From IMG/VR virus record IMGVR_UViG_3300027742_000011: a stretch of DNA of 64,000 nt. One strand, 5' to 3'. The DNA is from a virus. Positions 2,378 through 18,389 of the stretch are shown here, piece after piece. The notes beneath the pieces are model-generated. The model was not told the DNA's origin. It saw only the letters and a program-made list of their open reading frames with translations, and ran no database searches. Each line of letters starts with the position of its first letter. The first letter of the stretch is position 1. Position numbers and translations under genes: made by a program.

Positions 2378-2416
2378 TTACTTTCTCCTATATGTTCTTA
2401 TTTTTATTTATTAATC

Positions 2417-4294
2417 TTATTTAAGTAGTTTTGGGTTCTTATGACCCGCCGATTTTTTACTTGCTAATCTGGCTCCAGCTTCTCTATTATAAGCTTTACG
2501 ATCTAGATCTTTAGATTTATTATAGTGATCTGTCTTCTTCTTATCATATTTCCACCATCTTTCACTTTTTCTGTTATGGATGTTTTCACCCGCTTTGGCG
2601 TCGTCGTATACTCTCGACTTCTCTATGTGTTTGTCACTTTTCTTATGGTTTTTTTTAGCAGATTTCTCTGCCTTTTCGCTATAAGATTTTAAAGTATCAT
2701 CTGACAATTCACTTAAATAGTTCTCTAACCTAACAACACCGCTTTGAAATGCAACTTCTATATATTCATCATTTTCAGAAAGAATGTTACCGAAACCGTA
2801 TTCGACGTGTTCAATAATATCTTCACCCTGAAGATTAAAATTTTCATGCATGCGTGTTTGAATGCGTGTGATACGGGTTTCATGTGGGTGCTCGTGATAT
2901 TTCAAAACGTTCGCTGCCAATTTAGTACCCATATGCTTGAGATGGTAAGCATGATTAGTGTCATTGCCGCCATGACCTTGTAAGCCATCATATGAATAAG
3001 ATCCACCAATATTATTATGGAATTGAACATGGGCGCTATGTTTAGATACTGTAGCAGTATGATAGCGACCAGTATCTGGTTCAAATTTGCCATGAACAGA
3101 ATTGTGGTCAGTCTCACCGATTTTATTATAGCCATGATCCGCCAAACTTTTTCCTATATGTTTGGCGAATGCTTTTTTAGTTTCTTTACGATACTTTTCT
3201 TGTTTGCCATGATCCGCTTTTGCTTCATCTGCCGCCATTTTTCTCCAATCATTGTGAACATAAACATCGAAATGACCAGCGTGTTCTTTTTTCACATCAC
3301 GATGTGAAGGTCTATAGTGTTCGCCACCCTTCTGATATTTTGAGGCATGTGGATTATTCTTACCTAAGCGACCCTTAAGCAATATTCTTTCATGTGGTGC
3401 TTTGTTTTTCTTAAGGTCTGCCAACTTCTTTTCAGATTTAGCATCGCCTGGTTTGTGAGTAAATCGGTATGCTGATGTTCTTTCAGTAGTAGACTCTTCT
3501 AAGTCTTCAATCTCTTCCTTTTGGAAGTCGTCGACTTCGCCTTGTGCATCAGGAGATGAGTCCATGCCCGATTTAGCAGCCTTAGGTACGTATGCACCGA
3601 GTTTATTTTTAGAGAGTTCTGTCATGAGATTGTGGCGAGTAGTATAACCTCTACCTTCCCAAAGAACATCAACCCAACCCTCTTCAAGAGATTCGATTGT
3701 GCCTATAGCAAGGGATCGGTCGATTAATTGATCACCGACTTTAAAATCTTCTTCATTCATTTTATCTACGGCTTTTTCAATACCCATTTGTCTGTTTGTT
3801 ACTTTCTTAAGAGCCTTTTTAATCTTTTCATTATTCATACCCTCTTTAGAATTATAGTTCTTCTGGATAGTATTATGAAAATCTACAGATTTAGAACCAC
3901 GGTCCATCGCAGCTTTCTTAATGTATGAAGCATGTGTCTTTTTAGAGAGTTCATCAATCTGTTGTTGCTCATCAATCTCTGTTTCTTCAGTCTTTATTGT
4001 AGATCTTCCAGCCTTCTTAATATATTTTAAATAATTTTTTCTGCTCTGTTCGCGATTATTACTGGAAGGATCGTTTGCAAATGCTCTAGCAGCTTTTGGA
4101 TCAATAGGAAGACTCTCTTCACCCTTCTTAGCTACATAAAGATCTTTCTTGAATTTATTCTCATCATTGCGCTCGTCGAGCTCGACTTCTTTCTTACCTT
4201 TAACATCTTTAGTCTTCTCATCGCCATCTTGGTAAGAACAATCATCGGCTTTCTTTTTTTCCAATAACGATCTGATTTTATCATTTAAATCCAT
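2417..4294 (-). CDS. Large Lys/Glu-rich modular late protein (possible internal head protein)
   Basis: 625 aa with repeated E-L-S-x3-L-x2-Y-x2-K-A modules; AATAAATA box and AAGGAG upstream. Confidence 0.7.
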   Translation of the reverse strand: MDLNDKIRSLLEKKKADDCSYQDGDEKTKDVKGKKEVELDERNDENKFKKDLYVAKKGEESLPIDPKAARAFANDPSSNNREQSRKNYLKYIKKAGRSTIKTEETEIDEQQQIDELSKKTHASYIKKAAMDRGSKSVDFHNTIQKNYNSKEGMNNEKIKKALKKVTNRQMGIEKAVDKMNEEDFKVGDQLIDRSLAIGTIESLEEGWVDVLWEGRGYTTRHNLMTELSKNKLGAYVPKAAKSGMDSSPDAQGEVDDFQKEEIEDLEESTTERTSAYRFTHKPGDAKSEKKLADLKKNKAPHERILLKGRLGKNNPHASKYQKGGEHYRPSHRDVKKEHAGHFDVYVHNDWRKMAADEAKADHGKQEKYRKETKKAFAKHIGKSLADHGYNKIGETDHNSVHGKFEPDTGRYHTATVSKHSAHVQFHNNIGGSYSYDGLQGHGGNDTNHAYHLKHMGTKLAANVLKYHEHPHETRITRIQTRMHENFNLQGEDIIEHVEYGFGNILSENDEYIEVAFQSGVVRLENYLSELSDDTLKSYSEKAEKSAKKNHKKSDKHIEKSRVYDDAKAGENIHNRKSERWWKYDKKKTDHYNKSKDLDRKAYNREAGARLASKKSAGHKNPKLLK

Positions 4295-4325
4295 TACACC
4301 TACTCCTTTTATTTTTATTTATTCA

Positions 4326-4553
4326 TTACGCATTATCAATGATTTTTTGCTTTATTTGTGTTAAACGTACACCCTTTTTACAATACTTATTGGCCACTTC
4401 TGCCGCCGGTGTATTTTTTTGCTCTGCCTCAGGATTATCGAGAGGTGTTTCAACTTCAGGTTTTTTGTTTGACATAATATCTCTTGCGATATTAGCTTGT
4501 GTTTTAAATCTTTTCATTTGATAATATCTCGCGTTTTCTTCTGTTTTCTCCAA
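4326..4553 (-). CDS. Hypothetical protein
   Basis: 75-aa ORF between the two large late genes. Confidence 0.55.
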   Translation of the reverse strand: MEKTEENARYYQMKRFKTQANIARDIMSNKKPEVETPLDNPEAEQKNTPAAEVANKYCKKGVRLTQIKQKIIDNA

Positions 4554-6922
4554 ATGACTTTACCATTAGGAGTGGTTACCTTTACATTCTTATAATCAGA
4601 TGCGTTAGTATGAACTATTGGAATTCCTTCGATCTTACCTTCTTTAACCGCACCACCATCTGAAGCAACTTTCTTGTGGTCTTGATCTTGGCCCGGTGTA
4701 TCTTTTTTATAATTTTCTACAGAAGAATCTGTACCAATTTCTCGGTCTTTAGGTTCGATTTTCATCTCATCAATTTTCTTAGAAGAATGTTTCAAGAAAG
4801 ACTTCAATTCACCTTTAGATTTACCATACTTCTTTTTAAAGTTGCCGTTATCCATATCATCCGTATCGAAGTGAATGCTTGACATTTTACCTTCTTTAAG
4901 ACGATTGCGACCTTTTACGAAGTCAGAATATTTGAGTTTCTTGTATTCTTTCTTCTTGGCTTTCCAAGTTTTACCCGAGTGATATTTGTATTCGCCAGCG
5001 TGGTAATCGTGTTCGGATTTATGATGATCTGCTTTCCTCTGCTCAAGGGCAGCTTGATGGGCAAGTTCTTCTTCTGCACCTCGAGCATGTTCTTTACTCT
5101 CAAATCCGTGATTTTTCCATTCGCCGTTACTTAGATCGCGCTGGATGCTGCGGCTATCATTGGCTAATTCTTTATGTATCACGTGTTGATTGTGGTGGCT
5201 GTTAGCTTTTTCTAAATGATGCTCAGCCTTTTTCGTCTTTTCAGCTTTATCATGTGCCTTACTCTGACGTTCTCTTTCTCGTTTAGTTTTACCACCGGAA
5301 GCTAGATCGGCTGCATTTGCTGAGGCTCTCTTGCGTAAAGCCTGAAGTTCTTCAGGTGAATATCTTCCCTCTTCAATTTGCACAAAGTCTTCCTTCGTGC
5401 AACGAGGTACCTCTTTACCGTTTACAACAGTGACACCTTTTTGCCTGAAACCCTTTTTACATGGACTTTTCGGATCAACGATTCTCTTGCCGAACTTATC
5501 AACAGTGTCAGTCCATGCCTCTTTCATAGATTTCTGGGCACGGTAAATTCCGTCATCTCTGTTAACGGCTTTACGTCCTATTTTAGCCATGTTTGGAGTA
5601 TCTTCTGAATGTTCCCCATCCCTTTTGTTTTTATTATTACGGAGTACATTATACCTATCGTATTTTTTATCCATTTCTGGCTTGGCTTTTTTAATGTATC
5701 TATTTTTAAGATCGTCAGAAACTTCATTTAGCTTTTCATTTTCTTTTAATTGGAGATGCTTCTTATGGACTGACACCTCTTTATAGGTAGTTGGATTACT
5801 TTTGGTGCGAATACCCGTACTAGTCGGAACACTAATAATCACATGGTCTTTTTTATTGCTATCATGGCCTTGTATATAACCATTACCGTGTGGGGTCTTC
5901 TGGAAATATTTATATTTGCTCTGAGTGGCTTTACTCTTTGCAACTTCGTCTGAAGAGTGCTTATCCTTATCAAAGGAACCTCCAAGCTTCTTGGTTGCTC
6001 TTTTTACACCATCTTCGCGGTTCTGTCTTTTCTTTTCCCAGCGGTCATAGGTTTTAACTTCCGGGTCATCGTCACCGTAATCTTTTTTAATTTGTGCATG
6101 ATAATCTTTATTCCAGTGTGGCTTTGATTGGCCATCAGCCTTTGAAATGTAATTCTTTAAGACACGATTAGAAACTTCCATAATATCACCAGACTCGAAC
6201 TCATGTAAATCGCGATCCTCAGCGAAGTATGATTTACCGCGGTTAACATATGAATTGACTCTTGCGAATGCATATTGTTCTGGAGAGTATTTGTATTGTT
6301 CTTTCCACACTTCAAGTCCTCGAGTGAACACTTCACCGAGAACATTGATATCGATTCCACTTTTGTCTGATTTCTTCTGAAGTGCTCTATAAGCAGACGA
6401 ATCTTCATTTACTATATCAGAAAATTTCTTGTAAAATTTGATGTATTTGTTCTTCTTGTTTGTAGCATCCTTAACACGAGCATCTTTACGACCGGTAAGT
6501 AATTCGTCGAAAGATTCATTGAATCCTTCTCTAACGTGTTCTTTCTTACCTAGATTGTCGAGCTTCGCACCTCTAAGGAAAGATTGTAGCCTTTTAGCTT
6601 CAGCTTGTTGAATGCGCGGCATCAACCGCATAGCAATCTTTTTAATAATCTTTTGCTTTCCGGCAATCTGTCTGTCGACATTAATTTTCTGTGAAGGGGA
6701 AAGATTTTCATAATCAGCACCCAACTTGCCAGCAAACTTACGTCTTACGATTTTGCGTGCTGCGGCGAAGGCTCTCTTATGGATAATCCTCTTTGGCGCT
6801 TTCTTGCGTTGAGCAATTTTCCTTGCAATTCTTAATTTGTTCTTGTTTTTCTTTACGATCATAGCTCTTTTCTTACGTTGTTGTAAGTCTAAAACTTCGT
6901 CGATATGTTCTTCTTCGTGCAT
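4514..6922 (-). CDS. Large Lys/Arg-rich modular late protein (possible internal head protein)
   Basis: 802 aa; modules include KKSDKSGI..LGEVFTRG...YAFARVNSY, PCKKGFRQKG...VPRC and REIGTDSSVENYKKDTPGQ. Confidence 0.75.
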   Translation of the reverse strand: MHEEEHIDEVLDLQQRKKRAMIVKKNKNKLRIARKIAQRKKAPKRIIHKRAFAAARKIVRRKFAGKLGADYENLSPSQKINVDRQIAGKQKIIKKIAMRLMPRIQQAEAKRLQSFLRGAKLDNLGKKEHVREGFNESFDELLTGRKDARVKDATNKKNKYIKFYKKFSDIVNEDSSAYRALQKKSDKSGIDINVLGEVFTRGLEVWKEQYKYSPEQYAFARVNSYVNRGKSYFAEDRDLHEFESGDIMEVSNRVLKNYISKADGQSKPHWNKDYHAQIKKDYGDDDPEVKTYDRWEKKRQNREDGVKRATKKLGGSFDKDKHSSDEVAKSKATQSKYKYFQKTPHGNGYIQGHDSNKKDHVIISVPTSTGIRTKSNPTTYKEVSVHKKHLQLKENEKLNEVSDDLKNRYIKKAKPEMDKKYDRYNVLRNNKNKRDGEHSEDTPNMAKIGRKAVNRDDGIYRAQKSMKEAWTDTVDKFGKRIVDPKSPCKKGFRQKGVTVVNGKEVPRCTKEDFVQIEEGRYSPEELQALRKRASANAADLASGGKTKRERERQSKAHDKAEKTKKAEHHLEKANSHHNQHVIHKELANDSRSIQRDLSNGEWKNHGFESKEHARGAEEELAHQAALEQRKADHHKSEHDYHAGEYKYHSGKTWKAKKKEYKKLKYSDFVKGRNRLKEGKMSSIHFDTDDMDNGNFKKKYGKSKGELKSFLKHSSKKIDEMKIEPKDREIGTDSSVENYKKDTPGQDQDHKKVASDGGAVKEGKIEGIPIVHTNASDYKNVKVTTPNGKVIWRKQKKTRDIIK

Positions 6923-8992: not shown

Positions 8993-9156
8993 GGTCGAAC
9001 TCCTTGAAAAACAAACCTAGGGGTTCTACCGTTAAACCCACCGCCACCATTTAAAAACAACTTCATCGTGCGCAACTTCTTCATATTAGGACTTTTCATA
9101 AGAGTGTAATTGGTGTTAGTTTCGATTACAGCATTTTCGATGATTTTATATTTCAT
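8989..9156 (-). CDS. Small hypothetical protein (55 aa)
   Basis: Manual translation MKYKIIENAVIETNTN...LNGGGGFNGRTPRF; ATGA overlaps at both ends. Confidence 0.65.
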   Translation of the reverse strand: MKYKIIENAVIETNTNYTLMKSPNMKKLRTMKLFLNGGGGFNGRTPRFVFQGVRP

Positions 9157-9707
9157 TTAAAGTCCTTGATCTTGTGTTTAAATTCATCATTAGTTCTTTT
9201 ACCCATCGGTGTATTATCCGTTGTTGATGGTTCACCGATTAGATTTTGGGCAGTTTCTTCCACGTCATACAATTTCATTCGTGATCGATCAATACCGATT
9301 GTAAAACGTCGGTTAGTTGTTGTATCACAGTATCGATTTTTCAGCTGTTTTACCATAACCTGATTTACACTTTCAAGTTCTTCTGACGATATAAGTGCTA
9401 ACATTAAATCAGCGGTTGCTGGAAGACCAAAACTGTTCTTGGTCAATACACCATTACAATAGAATAGATTATCACCTGAAGTAGAAATATCCACAGTTTC
9501 CATTTCTCCCATCGGTTCAATCGCCATAATACGTTCATTGTAATCAATTTCAGAATCAGACAACTTTTGTTTATCAAGCTTTTCAGTTTCAAGCTTATAC
9601 AACAAGTCAGTTAGAACATCGACAGGCATATCTCCAACCGGGTATTCATTTAGCACTAACCATTCTGCTTTCGCGAGACATTGCAAATATAGATTATCAG
9701 TTGGCAT
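9153..9707 (-). CDS. gp41: gp41 replicative helicase fragment 3: C-intein 2 plus C-terminal extein
   Basis: ...TVDISTSGDNLFYCNGVLTKN|SFGLPATADLM; likely start MPTDN at 9707 with GGAG 7 nt upstream. Confidence 0.9.
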   Translation of the reverse strand: MPTDNLYLQCLAKAEWLVLNEYPVGDMPVDVLTDLLYKLETEKLDKQKLSDSEIDYNERIMAIEPMGEMETVDISTSGDNLFYCNGVLTKNSFGLPATADLMLALISSEELESVNQVMVKQLKNRYCDTTTNRRFTIGIDRSRMKLYDVEETAQNLIGEPSTTDNTPMGKRTNDEFKHKIKDFK

Positions 9708-9981
9708 TAGTTTTCTCCACATTTAAATAATCGCCAACACTTAGCATTCCACTTTCAATAGAAATTCTACCACGCTTAGTTGGAAACACATGTTCAGCCG
9801 AAACGATAATAGTTTTGCCTGACTCGAGCTTAATCTCATAACACTGTTTGAGCTTGGAATGATGCACCATGTGGACAGTCTTATAGCGATCATTAGATGT
9901 TATCTGGTCGCCGACTTTTACATCTTTAATTTTCTTCTTACTACCATCAATTAGAGTCACTTCTTCCTCGGCATAGATACA
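9435..9981 (-). mobile_element. Split intein 2 in gp41 (N-half 9700-9981, 94 aa; C-half ends at 9435)
   Basis: DTSE|CIYAEEEV...SAEHVFPT (blocks A and B); LTKN|S (block G); resembles gp41-1-type split inteins. Confidence 0.9.
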
Positions 9982-10929
9982 CTCTGAGGTGTCAGTCAAC
10001 TCAACATCAGAGTTGTTAAATCCAGAACGCGTAACTTGGGTAGCTGAAAAAATGGGAACATCATATTCAACAGCTAGACCACGAATTTCTTCAGCAATAG
10101 ATTTAATGTATGTGTATGAGTTTACATTTGAACCAGTTTTAACACGAGACGATGCACAGATGTTGATATAATCAATATAGATCATATCTGGCACGAAACG
10201 CTTTTTGATCTTCAACTCATTCAAAAGGTGACGGAAGTGACCAGCATGAGCAGAAGATGTTGGATATTCTTTAACAATCAGTTTACCAAGAGTTCTGGAT
10301 TTTACTTTCTCGATTTGCTTAGTGTAATAATCCTTTGGAGCATTTTCCAAATCTTGAATCTTGATGTTGAGTAGATTTGCATCGATACGTTCTGCAATCT
10401 TTTCTTCAGCCATTTCCATAGTGATATAAAGGACATTTTTATTATCCATCAAGTTGGCTGCAGCGAAGTGACACATTGCCAAACTTTTGCCAACACCTGT
10501 ATTGTGAGATTCAATTCCAGCAGTATAATACCTATGATTGTCATGATTAACCTGAATATCTACAATTGGAATTTTTTGACCAGTCAAATTTACAGATACA
10601 TTTGAAACGCCATCCTTAGTCATGATTTTAGGTAAAGAGTTTTCTGAAACCGTATGACCACCCATCCGATTTTGCTTAAAGTGCATGCATTTTATTTCCA
10701 AATCACCTGCGGATATCCATTCACCTAAAGGAGTTTTGAATAAGTGATCAGAATTACATCTGACAGTATAACCGTTTTCAGTTTCTACAAAATATTCTTC
10801 GTGCTCACCCTTATCTACAAAGGTATTAACACCTACCCAACCATCGGGCGAATCTACTTCAATTTCATATCCGTCTTTTAACAACTGATCAATATCACCA
10901 ATTGGCATTTCTTTTTCAACCCAATTCAT
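9697..10929 (-). CDS. gp41: gp41 fragment 2: C-intein 1, helicase core, N-intein 2
   Basis: ...YYTAGIESHN|TGVGKSLAMC (Walker A), YITMEM, IYIDYINI, ATQVTRSG, DTSE|CIYA. Confidence 0.92.
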   Translation of the reverse strand: MNWVEKEMPIGDIDQLLKDGYEIEVDSPDGWVGVNTFVDKGEHEEYFVETENGYTVRCNSDHLFKTPLGEWISAGDLEIKCMHFKQNRMGGHTVSENSLPKIMTKDGVSNVSVNLTGQKIPIVDIQVNHDNHRYYTAGIESHNTGVGKSLAMCHFAAANLMDNKNVLYITMEMAEEKIAERIDANLLNIKIQDLENAPKDYYTKQIEKVKSRTLGKLIVKEYPTSSAHAGHFRHLLNELKIKKRFVPDMIYIDYINICASSRVKTGSNVNSYTYIKSIAEEIRGLAVEYDVPIFSATQVTRSGFNNSDVELTDTSECIYAEEEVTLIDGSKKKIKDVKVGDQITSNDRYKTVHMVHHSKLKQCYEIKLESGKTIIVSAEHVFPTKRGRISIESGMLSVGDYLNVEKTNAN

Positions 10930-10977
10930 AAAAACCTCAATTTAATAAATAATTCTAACAGGAACAGGAGTCTATAC

Positions 10978-11625
10978 ATGAATATTTATAAGAAAATATA
11001 CGATAAACTGTGCAAAAATGGAAAAAACTTAAAAGAGCATTATGCTCCTAAATCTAATATACATAAACACCACATCAGACCAAAGCATGCTGGCGGATTA
11101 GATAAAAATTCTAATTTTACCTATCTGACAGTAAGAGAGCACATCATAGCACATTTTCTACTTTGGAAAATATACCAAAGCCCAAACGATTTAAGAGCTA
11201 TGAAAATGTTAGGTGCAGAGCTTACACCTAAACAAAGATCAATTGTTGGTAAATATTGTCATGAAAATGGAATAGGATTTCATTCTAAAAAATATCAAAA
11301 CAATAAACAGTGGCATTTAGATAGAGCTAAAAAATCAAGTGAAACCCAAAGGAAAAATAAGATTGGAGCTTTTTTTGATCCTGAGCTTAAAAAGGAAATA
11401 GCTTCTAAAGGTGGTAAAGAAGGCGTAAAAACCCAAAGGAAAAATAAGATTGGAGCTTTTTTTGATCCTGAGCTTAAAAAGGAAATAGCTTCTAAAGGTG
11501 GACAGGCGCTTAAAGGTTTAATATGCGTAACCAATGGAAAGCACAGGACAAGAATTAAACCAGAGCTCCTAAACAAATATATCTCGGAAGGATATAAAAA
11601 AGGTTTTACACTTTACGATATCTGA
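10978..11625 (+). CDS. Free-standing HNH homing endonuclease, antisense, inside the fractured gp41
   Basis: HKHHIRPKHAGG...LTVREHIIAHFLLW; AGGAG SD; AATAAATA upstream. Confidence 0.85.
   Translation: MNIYKKIYDKLCKNGKNLKEHYAPKSNIHKHHIRPKHAGGLDKNSNFTYLTVREHIIAHFLLWKIYQSPNDLRAMKMLGAELTPKQRSIVGKYCHENGIGFHSKKYQNNKQWHLDRAKKSSETQRKNKIGAFFDPELKKEIASKGGKEGVKTQRKNKIGAFFDPELKKEIASKGGQALKGLICVTNGKHRTRIKPELLNKYISEGYKKGFTLYDI
11342..11501 (+). repeat. 73-bp perfect direct repeat (11342-11414 and 11429-11501) in the HNH gene
   Basis: Offset 87 nt; encodes QRKNKIGAFFDPELKKEIASKGG twice. Confidence 0.9.
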
Positions 11626-12226
11626 CTTTTACCTTCGTTTCCGGGTGCACGCACCCTGCGAGGATGATTGTTAGAGTTTTACGTGATATGCCGCCTTTAG
11701 TGATATCATTCAGTTTAGCGATATCGAAAGGTACTTTGACTTCATCAAGGTGGTAATAATCGAAACGCCTATCAGCATCTTCGAGAAAGTCGTGACCAAT
11801 ATTCGTGTCAAATGATACTGCAAGGGCATCACTTAACATCTGTGGGATTGCGCCCTTCGATAAGTCTTTCTCCTCATCCATGACTTTAATCGATTCCATA
11901 ATAGCGTTATGGAGAGCTTTATCTTGACAAAACTTTTCAGTAGAGTCTGACAACCATTGGATTTGCTGTTCGCACTTTTCGAGTCCATCTAACGTTTCAG
12001 TGCATTCTTTAAACACCGCTTCTTCAATAGGAATTTTCTCGAGATCGAGATACAGTGCTTCTTTTGTTGGTGATGCGCTATACTTAGCTATATATCGTTC
12101 GATTAATTTATAAACGACTTTGTCTGCATTCCTGTGAAAATACTCAGGCTTTAAGAATGCAATCGTCTTACGGACGAATTCATCATTATATAATAGATTT
12201 GATAATATAATCTTCTCAATATTCAT
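11606..12226 (-). CDS. gp41: gp41 fragment 1: N-terminal domain plus 15-aa N-intein
   Basis: MNIEKIILSNL...SFDTNIGHDF...LNDITKGG...ILAG|CVHPET. Confidence 0.92.
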   Translation of the reverse strand: MNIEKIILSNLLYNDEFVRKTIAFLKPEYFHRNADKVVYKLIERYIAKYSASPTKEALYLDLEKIPIEEAVFKECTETLDGLEKCEQQIQWLSDSTEKFCQDKALHNAIMESIKVMDEEKDLSKGAIPQMLSDALAVSFDTNIGHDFLEDADRRFDYYHLDEVKVPFDIAKLNDITKGGISRKTLTIILAGCVHPETKVKVRYRKV

Positions 12227-12441: not shown

Positions 12442-12690
12442 TTATTCTTTAACATACTCGAGAACTTCGACTTTTCGTGTAAATTCTATGGAAACTTTCA
12501 CGATCCTATACCTCTCATCTATTCGCGTTAAATGTCTAAAAAAAGATGTGGCCGTCAATCGGTCTTCAATAATAAAAGCTTCATCAGCTGGCACCCATTC
12601 TGGAGAAATATATTTCTGCTGATATCTATCAGTAAAACCTTTTCTCTTTAGAAAACAATTAGTTTGAGTATCTATTAGGGCGTAATACAT
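12442..12690 (-). CDS. Hypothetical protein
   Basis: 82-aa ORF coupled to the uvsX stop. Confidence 0.6.
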   Translation of the reverse strand: MYYALIDTQTNCFLKRKGFTDRYQQKYISPEWVPADEAFIIEDRLTATSFFRHLTRIDERYRIVKVSIEFTRKVEVLEYVKE

Positions 12691-13757
12691 TATTCGTCTT
12701 CTATATTTTCAAATACTTCCGCGACTTCATCTTCTTCAACAAGTTTACCATGCGATACTTGATATGTTTTCTTCACAAAATCTTGAAACTTTTCACATGC
12801 TATAATTGGTTCCCAAAATTCGGCGGTATTGGTCTCTTTTAACCTTAAGTTTTTTCCTATAATTTCACCTGTATCCATATTTACTCGCTGGTACCAACCC
12901 ATTTTAGGCTTTATCACATGACCAGCTTCTAAAGCTAAATCTAAAAGACCAGACCATTTAGAAATACCACCAGTAAACTTGACAGTAATAGGAATTTTAG
13001 ATTTTTCTTTAACATATCTAGATTTTTCTACGTTAATAATGAAGTTATAACCAAGAAGTTCTTTTCCGTCTTTATCTTGCTGTCTACCGATAATAAACAC
13101 ATTGTCGGACGAATACATTCCTCCAGACCCGCCGGATACGATGGGCTTACTGAACATTTCCATAGTCATGTAAACATGATTAACTACCAACATTGGAATA
13201 TTTTTTAGATTTAAGTGTGGAGTTACCATTCTAAAGAATGACTTTAATTGTTTAGCTCTAGTCATATCAGCTACAGATTTTCCATCAATTGCATCATCTA
13301 CTTCCTTTTTAGAAGCCATATTACCAATAGAATCTATAGCGATTACGAGCTTATCTCCTCTAACAACGTCTTTTAGTTGCGTCATAACATCAAATTTCAT
13401 TTGTTCAATGTCAGTCAGTGGTGTATGGACCACTCTTTCCATATCTAAACCTACAGCATCAAAATACCCCTTTGGAGTACCAAATTCTGAATCATAAAAC
13501 AAACATACTGCATCTGGATATTTGTCCATGTAGGCTTTTACTGAAATTAAGGTGAAAAGTGTTTTAAAGTGACGAGATGGGCCGGCCCACTGAGTAAGTC
13601 CCGGTGTTAAACCACCATGTAAGTCGCCAGAATACGCGACATTAATAGCAGGAATAGATGTCGTAATCATATCTTTAGCATTAAAGAATTCAGATTCAGA
13701 TAGAACTGCAGTTTCTTTAATTGTTGAATTTTTTTTAATTTTATCCAATAGTGACAT
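12690..13757 (-). CDS. uvsX: RecA-like recombinase UvsX
   Basis: AGPSRHFKT Walker A, YDSEFG, IDSIGN, VSGGSG. Confidence 0.95.
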   Translation of the reverse strand: MSLLDKIKKNSTIKETAVLSESEFFNAKDMITTSIPAINVAYSGDLHGGLTPGLTQWAGPSRHFKTLFTLISVKAYMDKYPDAVCLFYDSEFGTPKGYFDAVGLDMERVVHTPLTDIEQMKFDVMTQLKDVVRGDKLVIAIDSIGNMASKKEVDDAIDGKSVADMTRAKQLKSFFRMVTPHLNLKNIPMLVVNHVYMTMEMFSKPIVSGGSGGMYSSDNVFIIGRQQDKDGKELLGYNFIINVEKSRYVKEKSKIPITVKFTGGISKWSGLLDLALEAGHVIKPKMGWYQRVNMDTGEIIGKNLRLKETNTAEFWEPIIACEKFQDFVKKTYQVSHGKLVEEDEVAEVFENIEDE

Positions 13758-13980: not shown

Positions 13981-14332
13981 TCCGTGGTTTCCTTTTATGC
14001 GGTGGTTCTTTTTCCCATAAATTTCCACTATTAATTATGTCTTGACGATGTTCATCTAATGTTTTAGGTTTAAATTCTTTTTCCATCTCTTTAAAATACA
14101 GAGGTTTGAGATCAATTAGAAAAGTTCTGAGGCGGTCAGCCAAGTCAATATCATTTTCAGATCCGTCTACATTATCGAGCAGTTCAATCAATCTATTTAC
14201 CGTAAACTCATCTAGAGGTAATTGTTTAGAAATTCTATTATAATAGTATGCTTGCTCCCAAATGTGCATTCGTTGGGCGCTCTGTTCAGCACAAGTTTCA
14301 TAATTTGTATAATATTCATTTAAATTGATCAT
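13973..14332 (-). CDS. Hypothetical protein
   Basis: ATGA-coupled to the gp43 stop. Confidence 0.6.
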   Translation of the reverse strand: MINLNEYYTNYETCAEQSAQRMHIWEQAYYYNRISKQLPLDEFTVNRLIELLDNVDGSENDIDLADRLRTFLIDLKPLYFKEMEKEFKPKTLDEHRQDIINSGNLWEKEPPHKRKPRNG

Positions 14333-15264
14333 GAGAACCAATCCTCCAACGTTGATACCTTTTCAGCATTCCATCCGATAGCTTTCAGTATAGATTGCAG
14401 GGGATCAATAAACGACTTTTCAAACTGTAAATCGTAATCAATGTATCTCTCTATCTCGAACTCAGGCGGCAGATTGTCTGGACATGCTACAACGTTCGAA
14501 AAGTATGGATTTGGCTGTTTAAGTTGAGCATACCGAATTTTATCGCCGCTGCCTATCTGCTCATATTTATCACCAATATCGTGTTCTTTTAGCAATCTAT
14601 TAAATAAAATTGAACCTTTTACATGGATGGGAGTACCGCTTACGAATCCTTCTTTCGAAGCCCATTTATCTATATCCGAGATACCTCGGGGAAATGCGAT
14701 TTGTTCGAAGTCGAACTCTGTAAATTCATCTCTAAATTTCTCAACATATTCTTGAAGATCACTTTCCTCTTTCAACATGATAATTTTCAGGGCATTCTTA
14801 ATTGCATTTCTACAAACCGCAGGAGTAGATGATTTGATCGCTTCGATACCAGACATTTTAAGTTTAGGCTCTGAGTATTCAACTCCTTCTTGGTTGAATA
14901 CGTTGAGAATATATCTCTTCTTCGCAGTCCAAATTCCCTTGTTGGCTATGCATTCTCTCTTCATTTGCATTTTCTGTTGAGATGCCTGCATCATTTCTGC
15001 GAGTTCTTCGTAATAACGATCGATAGCTGGCTCAAGCTTCTTTTCACAGTATTGATCAAGAATTCTAGATATTTCTTGATCGGATTTGCCTTCAGGAATT
15101 ACCTTCTTGACAAGTTCATCTAGAGTAATGTAAACTGAATTATGCACGCATATATCATTAGCAAAAAAGTTATGATTATCTTCAACTTCTATATCATAAA
15201 CATAATCTTCAATCTCACCTAAATCTTCTACTGTATAGTTTAAATCAAATTTTAGTTCTGACAT
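14329..15264 (-). CDS. gp43: gp43 DNA polymerase C-terminal fragment (42-aa C-intein plus extein)
   Basis: VYDIEVEDNHNFFANDICVHN|SVYIT; KKRYILN; MSGIEAIKSSTP. Confidence 0.93.
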   Translation of the reverse strand: MSELKFDLNYTVEDLGEIEDYVYDIEVEDNHNFFANDICVHNSVYITLDELVKKVIPEGKSDQEISRILDQYCEKKLEPAIDRYYEELAEMMQASQQKMQMKRECIANKGIWTAKKRYILNVFNQEGVEYSEPKLKMSGIEAIKSSTPAVCRNAIKNALKIIMLKEESDLQEYVEKFRDEFTEFDFEQIAFPRGISDIDKWASKEGFVSGTPIHVKGSILFNRLLKEHDIGDKYEQIGSGDKIRYAQLKQPNPYFSNVVACPDNLPPEFEIERYIDYDLQFEKSFIDPLQSILKAIGWNAEKVSTLEDWFS

Positions 15265-16312
15265 GTTTTAAAATTCTTTCAATGGTTTTATTAGGATCTT
15301 TTGTATAATCATATTCCCAAATGGTAATGCATTCAATGTTACGCTTTTCTAATATTAGTTTTAATTTATAATCGTCTTCTTCCCATCTCTCTTTAGCCTT
15401 CACTTTAGTCTGACCCCGCCCCCTTAAGCATTCATTCGGATGATATAATTTTGGATTTCCATGATAATGATCTCCATGATATTCTATTGCAAAATTTAGT
15501 TCTGGACAAACGAAATCGTATTTTTTATAAGTGTTGTTATCTAAAATGCCATACTCACCGCCATTTTCCGCATAATAGCATTTCTTGTGTGTAAATGGTT
15601 CTGACCTTATTAGTTTAGAAAATAACCTCTGTGATGCTTTTGAGTATGGCGATTTTGATTTTCTTACATATTCTTCATATTTAATTTTACCATCATCGCC
15701 ATATTTTCTGATGAAATTTTCTAAAGTTAATGCCTTTTTAGAATTAATTTCTAAATATTTGGATTTTCCTAAGTACTCTTCTGTATTTGTATATGCTTGC
15801 TTTTTACAATATTCATCGAATCTTCTTGTACCTTCATATTCGCCGTATTTTGAAACTAAATTCTCTAATGTAACTGCTCTAGATTTATTAAATTCATCAA
15901 ATTTAGTCTTTGTCCATCCGTGTTTTTTATTTTTATACTCAAAGGAATTTGTATATGCTTGCTTTTTACAATATTCATCGAATCTTCTTGTACCTTCATC
16001 TTCGCCGTATTTTGAAACTAAATTCTCTAAAGTTATGGCCTTTAGAGAATTTAGTTTATCATACTTTTGTTTTCCTAATTCTTCACCGTACATTAAAATG
16101 CATTTTTCTAGAGATACAACTGATCCTAAGTGTAAACAAGTCTTAACAATATGATACAAATCATCTATGTTTGGATTTCGGTATTTAATAATATTTTCAA
16201 CCGAAGATTTGTGTATGTTATTTTCTAAATATTCAATCTGGCTGCATGTTAAACTGCATTCAATGTTTACTTCTGAACCGTATTTCTTATATTTTCTTAT
16301 TATTTTCTTCAT
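15245..16312 (-). CDS. Homing endonuclease, Vsr/PD-(D/E)XK-like, between the gp43 halves
   Basis: YDFVCPELNFAIEYHGDHYHG, ITIWEYD; N-terminal TLENxxxKYG repeats. Confidence 0.8.
   Translation of the reverse strand: MKKIIRKYKKYGSEVNIECSLTCSQIEYLENNIHKSSVENIIKYRNPNIDDLYHIVKTCLHLGSVVSLEKCILMYGEELGKQKYDKLNSLKAITLENLVSKYGEDEGTRRFDEYCKKQAYTNSFEYKNKKHGWTKTKFDEFNKSRAVTLENLVSKYGEYEGTRRFDEYCKKQAYTNTEEYLGKSKYLEINSKKALTLENFIRKYGDDGKIKYEEYVRKSKSPYSKASQRLFSKLIRSEPFTHKKCYYAENGGEYGILDNNTYKKYDFVCPELNFAIEYHGDHYHGNPKLYHPNECLRGRGQTKVKAKERWEEDDYKLKLILEKRNIECITIWEYDYTKDPNKTIERILKHVRTKI
15786..16030 (-). repeat. 83-bp direct repeat with 1 mismatch (15786-15868 and 15948-16030)
   Basis: Offset 162 nt; encodes LENLVSKYGExEGTRRFDEYCKKQAYT twice. 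Confidence 0.9.
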
Positions 16313-18389
16313 CTGTTATCATTGAATCCTTATCTGTTCCTATTATATTTATAATACTGTGAATTTTTGGATTCAGTTTATGTGGTTTTATAGATGATAT
16401 TTTTTTTGTGTTTACGTTCCGTGCTATAATACTATGATCTTCTGTGACAACAACAGACTTCCCGTCATTGTTCGTAATCCTAAACATCCTCTTTTTTACT
16501 TTATGTTTCATAACATAATTAATACTTTTTGTTTCTAATTTTCCTTCCTTAGAAACTGAAGGCGTAGTGTCATTTTCACACAATTTAACATAATTGTGAT
16601 TAAATTTATCGCACTTTAAGAAAATGTCTTCTTTGAGATTATAATAATCTTCAATTGTCATATCTACACCGTTTACATTTATAACAGACTCACCAACGAC
16701 TGAATCCGTATCAGACGCGATCACATAATCAGCGTTTTCAGTACCAAGAAGTTTGTTGAAATATTCATTCAAGCGGTCTGCAATCCATCTAATTGAAAGC
16801 TGGCCAGACATTGTAATAGCTTCAGCATGATTAATATCATACCAACGGAAATACCTGTTGCCGAGAGCACCATAAGCTGAGTTGAGCTGAATCTTTTTAG
16901 CCATTTGAAGATTATTGAGCTTAGATATTATTTTCTCTAATTCCCACCTCTCTTTCTTATCAGAAGTGATCTGAAGCTTCTGTTGAGCGCTGATCATTTG
17001 CTTCTTGTAGACTTTACGATCATTATACATTTTCTGCATAAGAGCTGCAAGAAAACCTTGTTCGCTCTTGTCGTAAAAGCACCCATTGGCGCAATATGAA
17101 TATTGGTCGTCTAGGTTCACCTTTCTTTCTAAAAGATCATCAATCGACGGGAACCCTGACATCTTACCTCTGAATTTCTCAGGTGAGATATTATATTGCA
17201 TGATAAGGTGTGGATATAGTGAATTCAAGTCAAATGATATCACCCACTTGTGTAGACCGGTTTGAGGTGCCTTAACATAACCACCAACTAGTGGAGCATT
17301 AAATCCTGGTTCATTTTTCATTGGGATCACGTAACCCTGATCCATCAGATAATTGTGGATCATGATGTCCCATTGACGAACTGAAGCTAAAGTATCTTGA
17401 TAGTTTACTTTCGCGTCATACGCTAGAGCAAAAACTAGATCAATGAGTTTAAGTTTTTCTTCTAATTTGAAAACCAAATCGACATCGTGAATATTGTAGG
17501 CTACGTACTTTTGAGGATCTTTTGCATACAAGTCATCAAGGTTGCCATATTCAGAATAATCAATCTTCTTTTCACCAAGCTCCTCTTGACATATGAAGTC
17601 AAGTCTATAACTTTCACGTGGTGTATATATGAATTTCTTATAAAGCTGCATGTAATCTAATACAGCGATACCTTCAATTCTAAATGAAGGGCAAGGTTTA
17701 CCTTTGATATAAACTTCATACTGGTTCAATTTGCCCCAAGGGCTAAGTTCTTTAGCGAATTTCTCACCAAGAACACGAATAATTCTATTCACTAAATATG
17801 GAATATCATAAAATTCACAGTTCCAACCCGTAATTACATCGGGATCGAGATACTTCCAGATTTCTATAATCTTGATTAGCATCTCTCTTTCACTTTTACA
17901 ACGATAGTAAACTACGTTTTCATTAGTTTCTTCAAAGTCTTTCACACCAAACACGTAACGCATATTACCTTTTCTTAAGGTAACACAAGTGATTTCATTT
18001 GGTACTGTTGTAACTGAGGTTGCGATGTCCACTCTTCGAGTCATCGCGTTTTCGATATCTATACCTACAACCGAGATATTCTCAGGTTCATAGTTTATAG
18101 TGCCTTGGAAATTATCATAGATAAACGCATACTGAAAGGTTGAAAGACCGTAGATGGAGAAACCGCCCACATCTTCATATTGTTTAATAAATTGCCGTGC
18201 ATCGTACATCGTGTTGAAATTTTTCTTTTCAACATACTTACCATCAAGCGTTTTGAATTGTGTTTCTGTTGAAGCTGGTACGAATAAGTATGGGGAATAT
18301 GAATAGATTTCTTTATGGGGTTTTCCTGCCTTTACACCTTTAGCATATATTCTTCCCTTGTTAAGGAAGATGTTTGTGTAAAAATCCAT
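16287..18389 (-). CDS. gp43: gp43 family B DNA polymerase N-terminal fragment plus N-intein
   Basis: Exo DIE, FDIPY-like (YDIPY), YNIHDV; SFDLNSLYP; KIQLNSAYG; ASDTD|S. Confidence 0.95.
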   Translation of the reverse strand: MDFYTNIFLNKGRIYAKGVKAGKPHKEIYSYSPYLFVPASTETQFKTLDGKYVEKKNFNTMYDARQFIKQYEDVGGFSIYGLSTFQYAFIYDNFQGTINYEPENISVVGIDIENAMTRRVDIATSVTTVPNEITCVTLRKGNMRYVFGVKDFEETNENVVYYRCKSEREMLIKIIEIWKYLDPDVITGWNCEFYDIPYLVNRIIRVLGEKFAKELSPWGKLNQYEVYIKGKPCPSFRIEGIAVLDYMQLYKKFIYTPRESYRLDFICQEELGEKKIDYSEYGNLDDLYAKDPQKYVAYNIHDVDLVFKLEEKLKLIDLVFALAYDAKVNYQDTLASVRQWDIMIHNYLMDQGYVIPMKNEPGFNAPLVGGYVKAPQTGLHKWVISFDLNSLYPHLIMQYNISPEKFRGKMSGFPSIDDLLERKVNLDDQYSYCANGCFYDKSEQGFLAALMQKMYNDRKVYKKQMISAQQKLQITSDKKERWELEKIISKLNNLQMAKKIQLNSAYGALGNRYFRWYDINHAEAITMSGQLSIRWIADRLNEYFNKLLGTENADYVIASDTDSVVGESVINVNGVDMTIEDYYNLKEDIFLKCDKFNHNYVKLCENDTTPSVSKEGKLETKSINYVMKHKVKKRMFRITNNDGKSVVVTEDHSIIARNVNTKKISSIKPHKLNPKIHSIINIIGTDKDSMITDEENNKKI

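Follow-up and report, generated by a model that had tools for sequence, protein, structure and literature searches.

The window analyzed here (64,000 nucleotides of IMG/VR virus record IMGVR_UViG_3300027742_000011) encodes the gp41 replicative helicase of a T4-like phage in three separate pieces. According to the open reading frame (ORF) list of the window, positions 9153–12226 are occupied by three minus-strand ORFs, F1, F2, and F3, as a preliminary description of this DNA had proposed. F1 (11606–12226, 206 aa) comprises gp41 residues 1–191, ending in ILAG, followed by CVHPETKVKVRYRKV and a stop codon. F2 (9697–10929, 410 aa, beginning MNWVEKE) comprises 143 non-helicase residues ending in GIESHN, a helicase segment of 173 aa running from TGVGKS to DTSE, and a tail of 94 aa running from CIYAEE to NAN before the stop codon. 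F3 (9153–9707, 184 aa) begins with 91 non-helicase residues ending in GVLTKN and continues with the 93 aa of helicase sequence that open with SFGLPATAD. The listed start of F3 at 9722 was rejected, as the ATG at 9707, with GGAG seven bases upstream, is more likely; the resulting 184-aa protein is the form called on contigs carrying an identical protein, and homologues of 182–185 aa agree with it. A GAGG ribosome-binding site precedes the ATG of F2. F3 begins in another frame 11 nt before the end of F2, with nothing encoded between the two; given this overlap, they are probably translationally coupled.

Both breaks have the layout of a gene fractured by a split intein, in which one half ends an ORF and the other starts the next one: the sequences read AG|C...HN|T between F1 and F2 (break A) and SE|C...KN|S between F2 and F3 (break B). 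The three exteins, which had been estimated at about 457 aa when joined, gave exactly 457 aa (191 + 173 + 93) when they were joined in a script. Aligned over its whole length, the product is colinear with T4 gp41 (41% identity over 439 columns) and with gp41 of Synechococcus phage Sf-CH11 (56% identity), and neither alignment has an indel at a junction. In the coordinates of Sf-CH11 gp41, junction A is AG195|T196, junction B is SE367|S368, and the F2 extein extends from Thr196 to Glu367. Splicing at these positions would re-form Walker A (AG-TGVGKS) and the SE-SFGLP motif, as had been suggested, the junctions being exact to the residue against the T4 and Sf-CH11 proteins. The joined product keeps Walker A and the C-terminal RecA-like domain and is thus recognizable as a T4-type gp41 of the DnaB helicase family.

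Extein 1 (11654–12226, minus strand; gp41 residues 1–191) covers the N-terminal domain up to ILAG of Walker A. It has a match to the DnaB N-terminal domain in Pfam and to phrog_19 (8e-39), and BLASTP showed 42% identity to residues 5–195 of Sf-CH11 gp41. Extein 2 (9982–10500, minus strand; gp41 residues 192–364, TGVGKS to DTSE) holds the core of the ATPase domain (DnaB_C in Pfam, 4e-13). Extein 3 (9153–9434, minus strand; gp41 residues 365–457) runs from SFGLPATAD to the C-terminus and the stop codon, and is 67% identical to residues 365–427 of Sf-CH11 gp41. With T4 gp41 as the tblastn query, residues 201–373 were located at 10494–9982 and residues 374–433 at 9434–9255, and the search revealed no second gp41 copy in the 64-kb window.

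Break A falls in the Walker A loop (AG|TGVGKS). The N-terminal half of its intein, IntN-A (11606–11653, minus strand), consists of 15 residues (CVHPETKVKVRYRKV) and a stop codon, and the C-terminal half, IntC-A (10501–10929, minus strand), consists of 143 residues ending in GIESHN before Thr+1. The best match of IntC-A in the PDB was VidaL, an ultra-short atypically split intein (6VGV/6VGW; 6VGV_A), with an E-value of 9.5e-9 over residues 5–142. In P0006, a contiguous relative from a metagenome, the corresponding sequence is unbroken (ILAG-CVHPDTKVRVRV-NSEREKEIPIGDID...) and aligns to VidaL from the N-terminal strands, indicating that the 15-residue tail of F1 and the head of F2 make up one HINT domain cut after strand β2. 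Cys1, the block B His (NSDH), the terminal His-Asn, and Thr+1 are all present, as in a VidaL-type intein. Its sequence places intein A among the atypically split inteins of the VidaL family, and trans-splicing is predicted for it. It shares with VidaL the Cys1 residue and the split position after β2, termed S1 for VidaL and PolB16 (PMC13014065), and its N-half has 15 aa against 16 in VidaL. By contrast, the relationship is distant, as the E-value over the C-half shows, the +1 residue is Thr, and the C-half is approximately 15 aa longer than in most relatives.

The 15 residues of the F1 half are an ordinary length within a large family: of the 120 clusters listed, among them that of the window, at least 106 end in a tail of 14–24 aa after [ASG]G, with the consensus CVHPDTKVKIRYRKK and a commonest length of 16. 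CVHP.T opens the N-half in more than 100 clusters. The N-half has 14 residues in thirteen clusters of F1 homologues (P0130, P0145, P0153, and ten others), for example CVHPDTLITVRIKK. Natural atypical N-halves have been reported to span 15–37 aa, with that of VidaL at 16 and one of 15 aa termed “record-short” (PMC13014065); those of the thirteen clusters are one residue shorter. A tblastn search of IntC-A against cultured phages returned only relatives of 31–34% identity, located in TerL and UvsX and none in gp41, and no cultured phage in the collection carries intein A in gp41.

The site of break B (DTSE|SFGLP) is 12 residues further downstream than that of the gp41-1 intein, and no endonuclease gene separates the halves of intein B. 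IntN-B (9697–9981, minus strand; 94 residues, CIYAEE to NAN, and the stop codon) matched the gp41-1 intein of PDB entry 6QAZ with an E-value of 8.8e-12. IntC-B (9435–9707, minus strand) has 91 residues, of which 1 to about 55 form a two-helix extension (9543–9707) and 58–91 the splicing core, with LTKN before Ser+1; this core (the last 34 residues) aligns to the gp41-1 IntC at 6QAZ residues 95–128 (E 3.5e-4). Both halves are therefore homologous in sequence to gp41-1. The insertion sites differ, however, since gp41-1 sits at RSG[YF]|S and intein B at DTSE|S, and in pieces with an intein at the true gp41-1 site (P0063, L019–L021, L026) extein 2 stops at residue 161 of 173. The C-halves differ as well: that of gp41-1 has about 37 aa and ends in His-Asn, whereas that of intein B has 91 aa, ends in Lys-Asn, and carries a helical extension of about 55 residues that is not in the gp41-1 intein. 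AlphaFold2 placed helices at residues 3–19 and 29–48 of this extension (block-mean pLDDT 79–93 for residues 1–40 and 73 for residues 41–50), and the extension is conserved in 67 of 67 aligned F3 homologues and in the cultured Shigella phage ESh36. On these sequence grounds intein B is a relative of gp41-1, not gp41-1 itself. F2 carries a C-intein and an N-intein of two different pairs, as first described; these pairs come from separate families, and the fold is divided at a different point in each.

The catalytic residues (Cys1, block B His, terminal Asn, and Thr or Ser at +1) are invariant or nearly so across diverged homologues. H62, H142, N143, and T144 of intein A, together with C317 of IntN-B and H380 in block B of intein B, are invariant in 32 aligned middle pieces, and T89, K90, N91, and S92 of F3 are invariant in 67 homologues. 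This conservation bears on a reading in which the intein halves would only dimerize, bringing F1, F2, and F3 together as a working helicase that is never ligated. Split-intein halves do bind tightly on their own, and intein B is without the penultimate His. However, catalytic residues kept in 32–67 diverged homologues would be pointless without the chemistry, and ATP could not bind to a Walker A loop that still contained an intein. Fast splicing is also known for the nearest characterized relatives, VidaL and gp41-1 (PMC13014065). We regard assembly without ligation as very unlikely.

A gene of 215 aa on the plus strand (10978–11625) lies between F1 and F2, and at its 3′ end it shares 20 nt with the end of F1. 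It encodes a free-standing HNH-like homing endonuclease matching phrog_655 (“homing endonuclease”, 1.1e-19), for which endonuclease activity is predicted. The HNH-like assignment is based on the PHROGs match and a conserved motif; Pfam gave no HNH match for this ORF, only KGG repeats. Antisense homologues occupy the same place in two other phage loci, L004 (63% identity) and L002 (42%), and the motif H.HHI.P.H.GG...N.TYL..R.HI.AHFLLWKI is invariant across the window and these two loci. The antisense orientation is kept in L002, L004, and L011. Tandem Repeats Finder detected a perfect tandem duplication of 87 bp (11342–11501, 1.8 copies, 100% matches) within the gene, which repeats a KGG-type module. 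The L004 homologue has the same two modules in diverged form, suggesting that the copies in the window were recently homogenized or duplicated.

The three-piece layout was found in independent assemblies and in diverged phages. The identical F2 protein was read on five contigs, and two of them (ENA ERZ778604 and SRR1313318), which come from different samples, have the same gene order as the window, except that the SRR1313318 contig ends within the endonuclease gene. The three-piece order is shared by the diverged loci L004/L005, L002/L003, L009, and L013, at identities of 55–67%. In L004/L005 (67% identity), an antisense endonuclease gene lies between the A halves and nothing between the B halves, where F2 and F3 overlap. 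L002/L003 (57%) have an antisense endonuclease gene between the A halves and a sense ORF of 353 aa between the B halves. L009, whose protein is the same as that of an NCBI uncultured Caudovirales phage record, has no gene between the A halves and a GIY-YIG gene between the B halves, which are at the true gp41-1 site. The B halves of L013, from IMG/VR, are separated by about 1.1 kb. Two NCBI records of uncultured Caudovirales phages (P0063 and P0139) contain the same kind of piece, unremarked.

These loci also decide whether the break between F2 and F3 could be a frameshift introduced into a contiguous intein by sequencing or assembly, in which case the gene would be in only two pieces. F2 and F3 do overlap in different frames with no gene between them. 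The frameshift was nevertheless rejected, as the two samples (ERZ778604 and SRR1313318) both show an identical F2 followed by the overlapping 184-aa F3. Furthermore, L004 has the same F2/F3 overlap at 67% identity, L002, L009, and ESh36 carry a whole gene of endonuclease size between the same halves, and F3 has its own GGAG-ATG start. A frameshift is thus extremely improbable.

The architecture of the 119 nearest non-self clusters to F2 (clustered at 90% identity) was classified; these clusters are ranked by likeness to the query, and the frequency of the three-piece form among them is overstated for this reason. Three-piece middle pieces accounted for 66 of the 119, of which 38 have IntC-A, the extein, and IntN-B, and 28 have IntC-A, the extein, and an N-half at the gp41-1 site. 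Two-piece genes, with IntC-A followed by the rest of the gene, made up 41 clusters; intein A was contiguous in eight and absent from three, and one cluster was truncated at the N-terminus. Frequency is better judged from an IMG/VR scan that used extein motifs: among its best 80 loci, 70 had neither intein, five had intein A only, four had only an intein at the gp41-1 site, and one had both. The three-piece gene is accordingly a minority state that recurs in dozens of environmental lineages of uncultured T4-like phages. Its description as unusual holds insofar as it was seen in one of the best 80 IMG/VR loci, but not in the sense of an isolated case, given its wide recurrence among the nearest clusters.

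A tree built from extein 2 only requires 31 or more changes of architecture, a pattern that fits mobile inteins. The nearest extein relatives, P0011 (87–88% identical) and P0033, are without intein A, and this suggests that intein A and its endonuclease gene were probably gained recently, or lost next door. The nearest relative (L006), which lacks intein A, has an ORF of 81 aa at 5373–5618 between its B halves, of no recognized family and possibly an endonuclease remnant. Phage ESh36 (L007, ON528746.1), a cultured Tequatrovirus, has a gp41 gene at 2401–5381 split in two at DTSE|S, that is, at break B only. An ORF of 332 aa of no recognized family lies between its B halves, and the pieces are annotated as two “DNA primase/helicase” genes. 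In an IMG/VR locus with break A only (L014), an N-half resembling that of intein B (1254–1484) is located approximately 2.5 kb upstream of gp41 and presumably belongs to a different replication gene.

Based on the ORF structure, the exact junctions, the family assignments, the conserved catalytic residues, and the recurrence of the layout, we estimate a probability of roughly 85% that gp41 is encoded by three genes and rebuilt post-translationally by two independent protein trans-splicing reactions. Splicing with its order and rate, its orthogonality, and the expression of the genes are what we infer from the sequence. In the proposed mechanism, F1, F2, and F3 would be made separately, IntN-A would dock on IntC-A, and IntN-B on IntC-B. 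In class 1 splicing, an acyl shift at Cys1 is followed by transfer to the +1 residue, cyclization of the terminal Asn, and rearrangement to a peptide bond. In reaction A, the 15-residue tail of F1, which would supply strands β1 and β2 of the HINT fold, and the 143-residue head of F2 would complete the VidaL-type intein. A thioester would form at Cys1 and be attacked by Thr+1, the terminal Asn would cyclize, and Walker A would be rejoined as AG-TGVGKS. In reaction B, the 94-residue tail of F2 and the 91-residue head of F3 would form the gp41-1-like intein, with Cys1, Lys-Asn, and Ser+1, and would rejoin DTSE-SFGLP in the H4 region. Since ATP and DNA binding need an uninterrupted Walker A loop and H4 region, helicase activity should depend on both ligations.

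Orthogonality of the two reactions is plausible because inteins A and B belong to different families, are distant relatives, and are cut at different places, A after β2 and B at the canonical site in the middle of the fold. A mixed pair of IntN-A, which would provide only β1 and β2, and IntC-B, which would provide only the last strands, would miss the middle of the fold, and the reverse pair of IntN-B and IntC-A would duplicate it; mis-pairing would thus be unlikely. As to origin, each break probably arose from a homing-endonuclease gene that invaded an intein. The HNH-like gene is still in place, in antisense, at break A, and would have been lost at break B, leaving overlapping ORFs.

Several observations weigh against reconstruction by two trans-splicing reactions. 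The Pfam Intein_splicing and Hint matches of IntN-B are weak, both scoring below the curated cut-offs, and intein B has an invariant Lys instead of the penultimate His. Any transcription that continued from F1 into F2 would meet the antisense endonuclease gene head-on, and F2 has no convincing promoter: scans for promoters and terminators gave no excess of sites over shuffled sequence. A match to the T4 late-promoter consensus, TATAAATA, lies on the minus strand at 10983–10990, 54 nt upstream of the F2 start. This consensus occurs 13 times in the window against 9.2 expected by chance, which is not significant, and the site before F2 is a hint only.

Finally, the contig is at least 99.9 kb long and the window covers 64 kb of it, and a second intact helicase could conceivably lie outside the window. 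The same limited view of the contig would leave room for a decaying helicase gene with non-functional fragments, with replication performed by another phage or host helicase. T4-like phages, however, depend on their own gp41, and no second copy was found within the window. All three exteins are full length, free of stop codons, and 56% identical to an intact cyanophage gp41, and the persistence of the split layout across lineages 55–67% identical would require purifying selection. We consider decay highly improbable and retain the two trans-splicing reactions as the most likely explanation of the locus.

The uvsX gene (12690–13757) is located just upstream of F1, and the uvsX-gp41 gene order is the same as in T4. 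Megablast of the locus against 50,697 phage records gave no match, indicating a phage without a close cultured relative. The neighboring DNA polymerase gene gp43 (14329–18389, minus strand) is also fractured. The ORF at 16287–18389 (minus strand) encodes the PolB exonuclease and polymerase domains and an intein N-half, and the ORF at 14329–15264 begins with a C-half ending in ICVHN|SVYITLDE. The ORF between them (15245–16312, 355 aa) matches phrog_22677 at 5.5e-55, a family to which the ORF separating the B halves of L002 gp41 also has a weak match. A TATAAATA sequence is found at 16346–16353, just upstream of this middle ORF. Together with inteins A and B, the fracture of gp43 brings the number of split inteins within 9 kb of the replication module to three.

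A further suggestion is that the double fracture is a selected control device that times or gates replisome assembly, for example by redox state or fragment stoichiometry. It would act through two fast orthogonal trans-splicing reactions, one at the ATP site and one at the DNA-binding H4 site, with the IntC-B extension as a docking or regulatory module. We find this rather unlikely; if it were true, the whole replisome core would be assembled post-translationally, since gp43 is split too.

Fractured gp41 loci were described by Dassa, London, Stoddard and Pietrokovski in 2009 (PMC2677866) as gp41-1 to gp41-7. These are two-piece genes broken at position 356 of P-SSM2 gp41. A fractured gene of this kind has a free-standing endonuclease gene between the intein halves and all three coding regions on one strand; the gp41-7 locus is without an endonuclease gene. 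The window shares with them a T4-like gp41 next to uvsX that is broken by a split intein. The free-standing endonuclease gene at break A fits this pattern, and break B, which has none, resembles gp41-7. In contrast to the described loci, the endonuclease gene at break A is antisense to the helicase pieces, and a second break is present in the P-loop.

Two insertion points are also known from bacterial DnaB, where some species have contiguous inteins at P-loop site b and H4 site a at the same time (Novikova et al. 2016, PMC4760082). An example is DnaB of M. smegmatis with its two contiguous inteins, DnaBi1 and DnaBi2 (Kelley et al. 2018, PMC6195587). DnaB belongs to the same superfamily and has both hot spots (P-loop and H4) filled at once, the equivalence with the sites in gp41 being by position only. 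However, the bacterial inteins are contiguous and act in cis within one polypeptide, whereas both are split in the gp41 of the window and three products must meet. A parallel in layout is an engineered tandem trans-splicing system with two orthogonal split inteins (Humberg et al. 2025, PMC12707363). Like the window locus, it uses three segments, the middle one starting with a C-half and ending with an N-half, and it needs orthogonality. It was built in the laboratory from unrelated inteins, whereas the pair in the window occurs together in one natural gene. Full-text literature searches, whose reach did not include the original VidaL papers, turned up no account of a natural gene that depends on two split inteins. 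Both intein families are already known; the three-piece layout itself, which we could not find described, appears to be a new combination.

The three-piece genes offer naturally co-evolved intein pairs for three-segment ligation, in which a VidaL-type intein with an N-half of 14–16 residues is combined with a gp41-1-like intein or one at the true gp41-1 site; their function side by side is predicted. The close relatives of the locus form a dense natural series at two sites, including states with no intein, with a contiguous intein, with a split intein and an endonuclease gene, and with a split intein without one. Such a series would be useful for studying how inteins and homing endonucleases invade, break, and decay.

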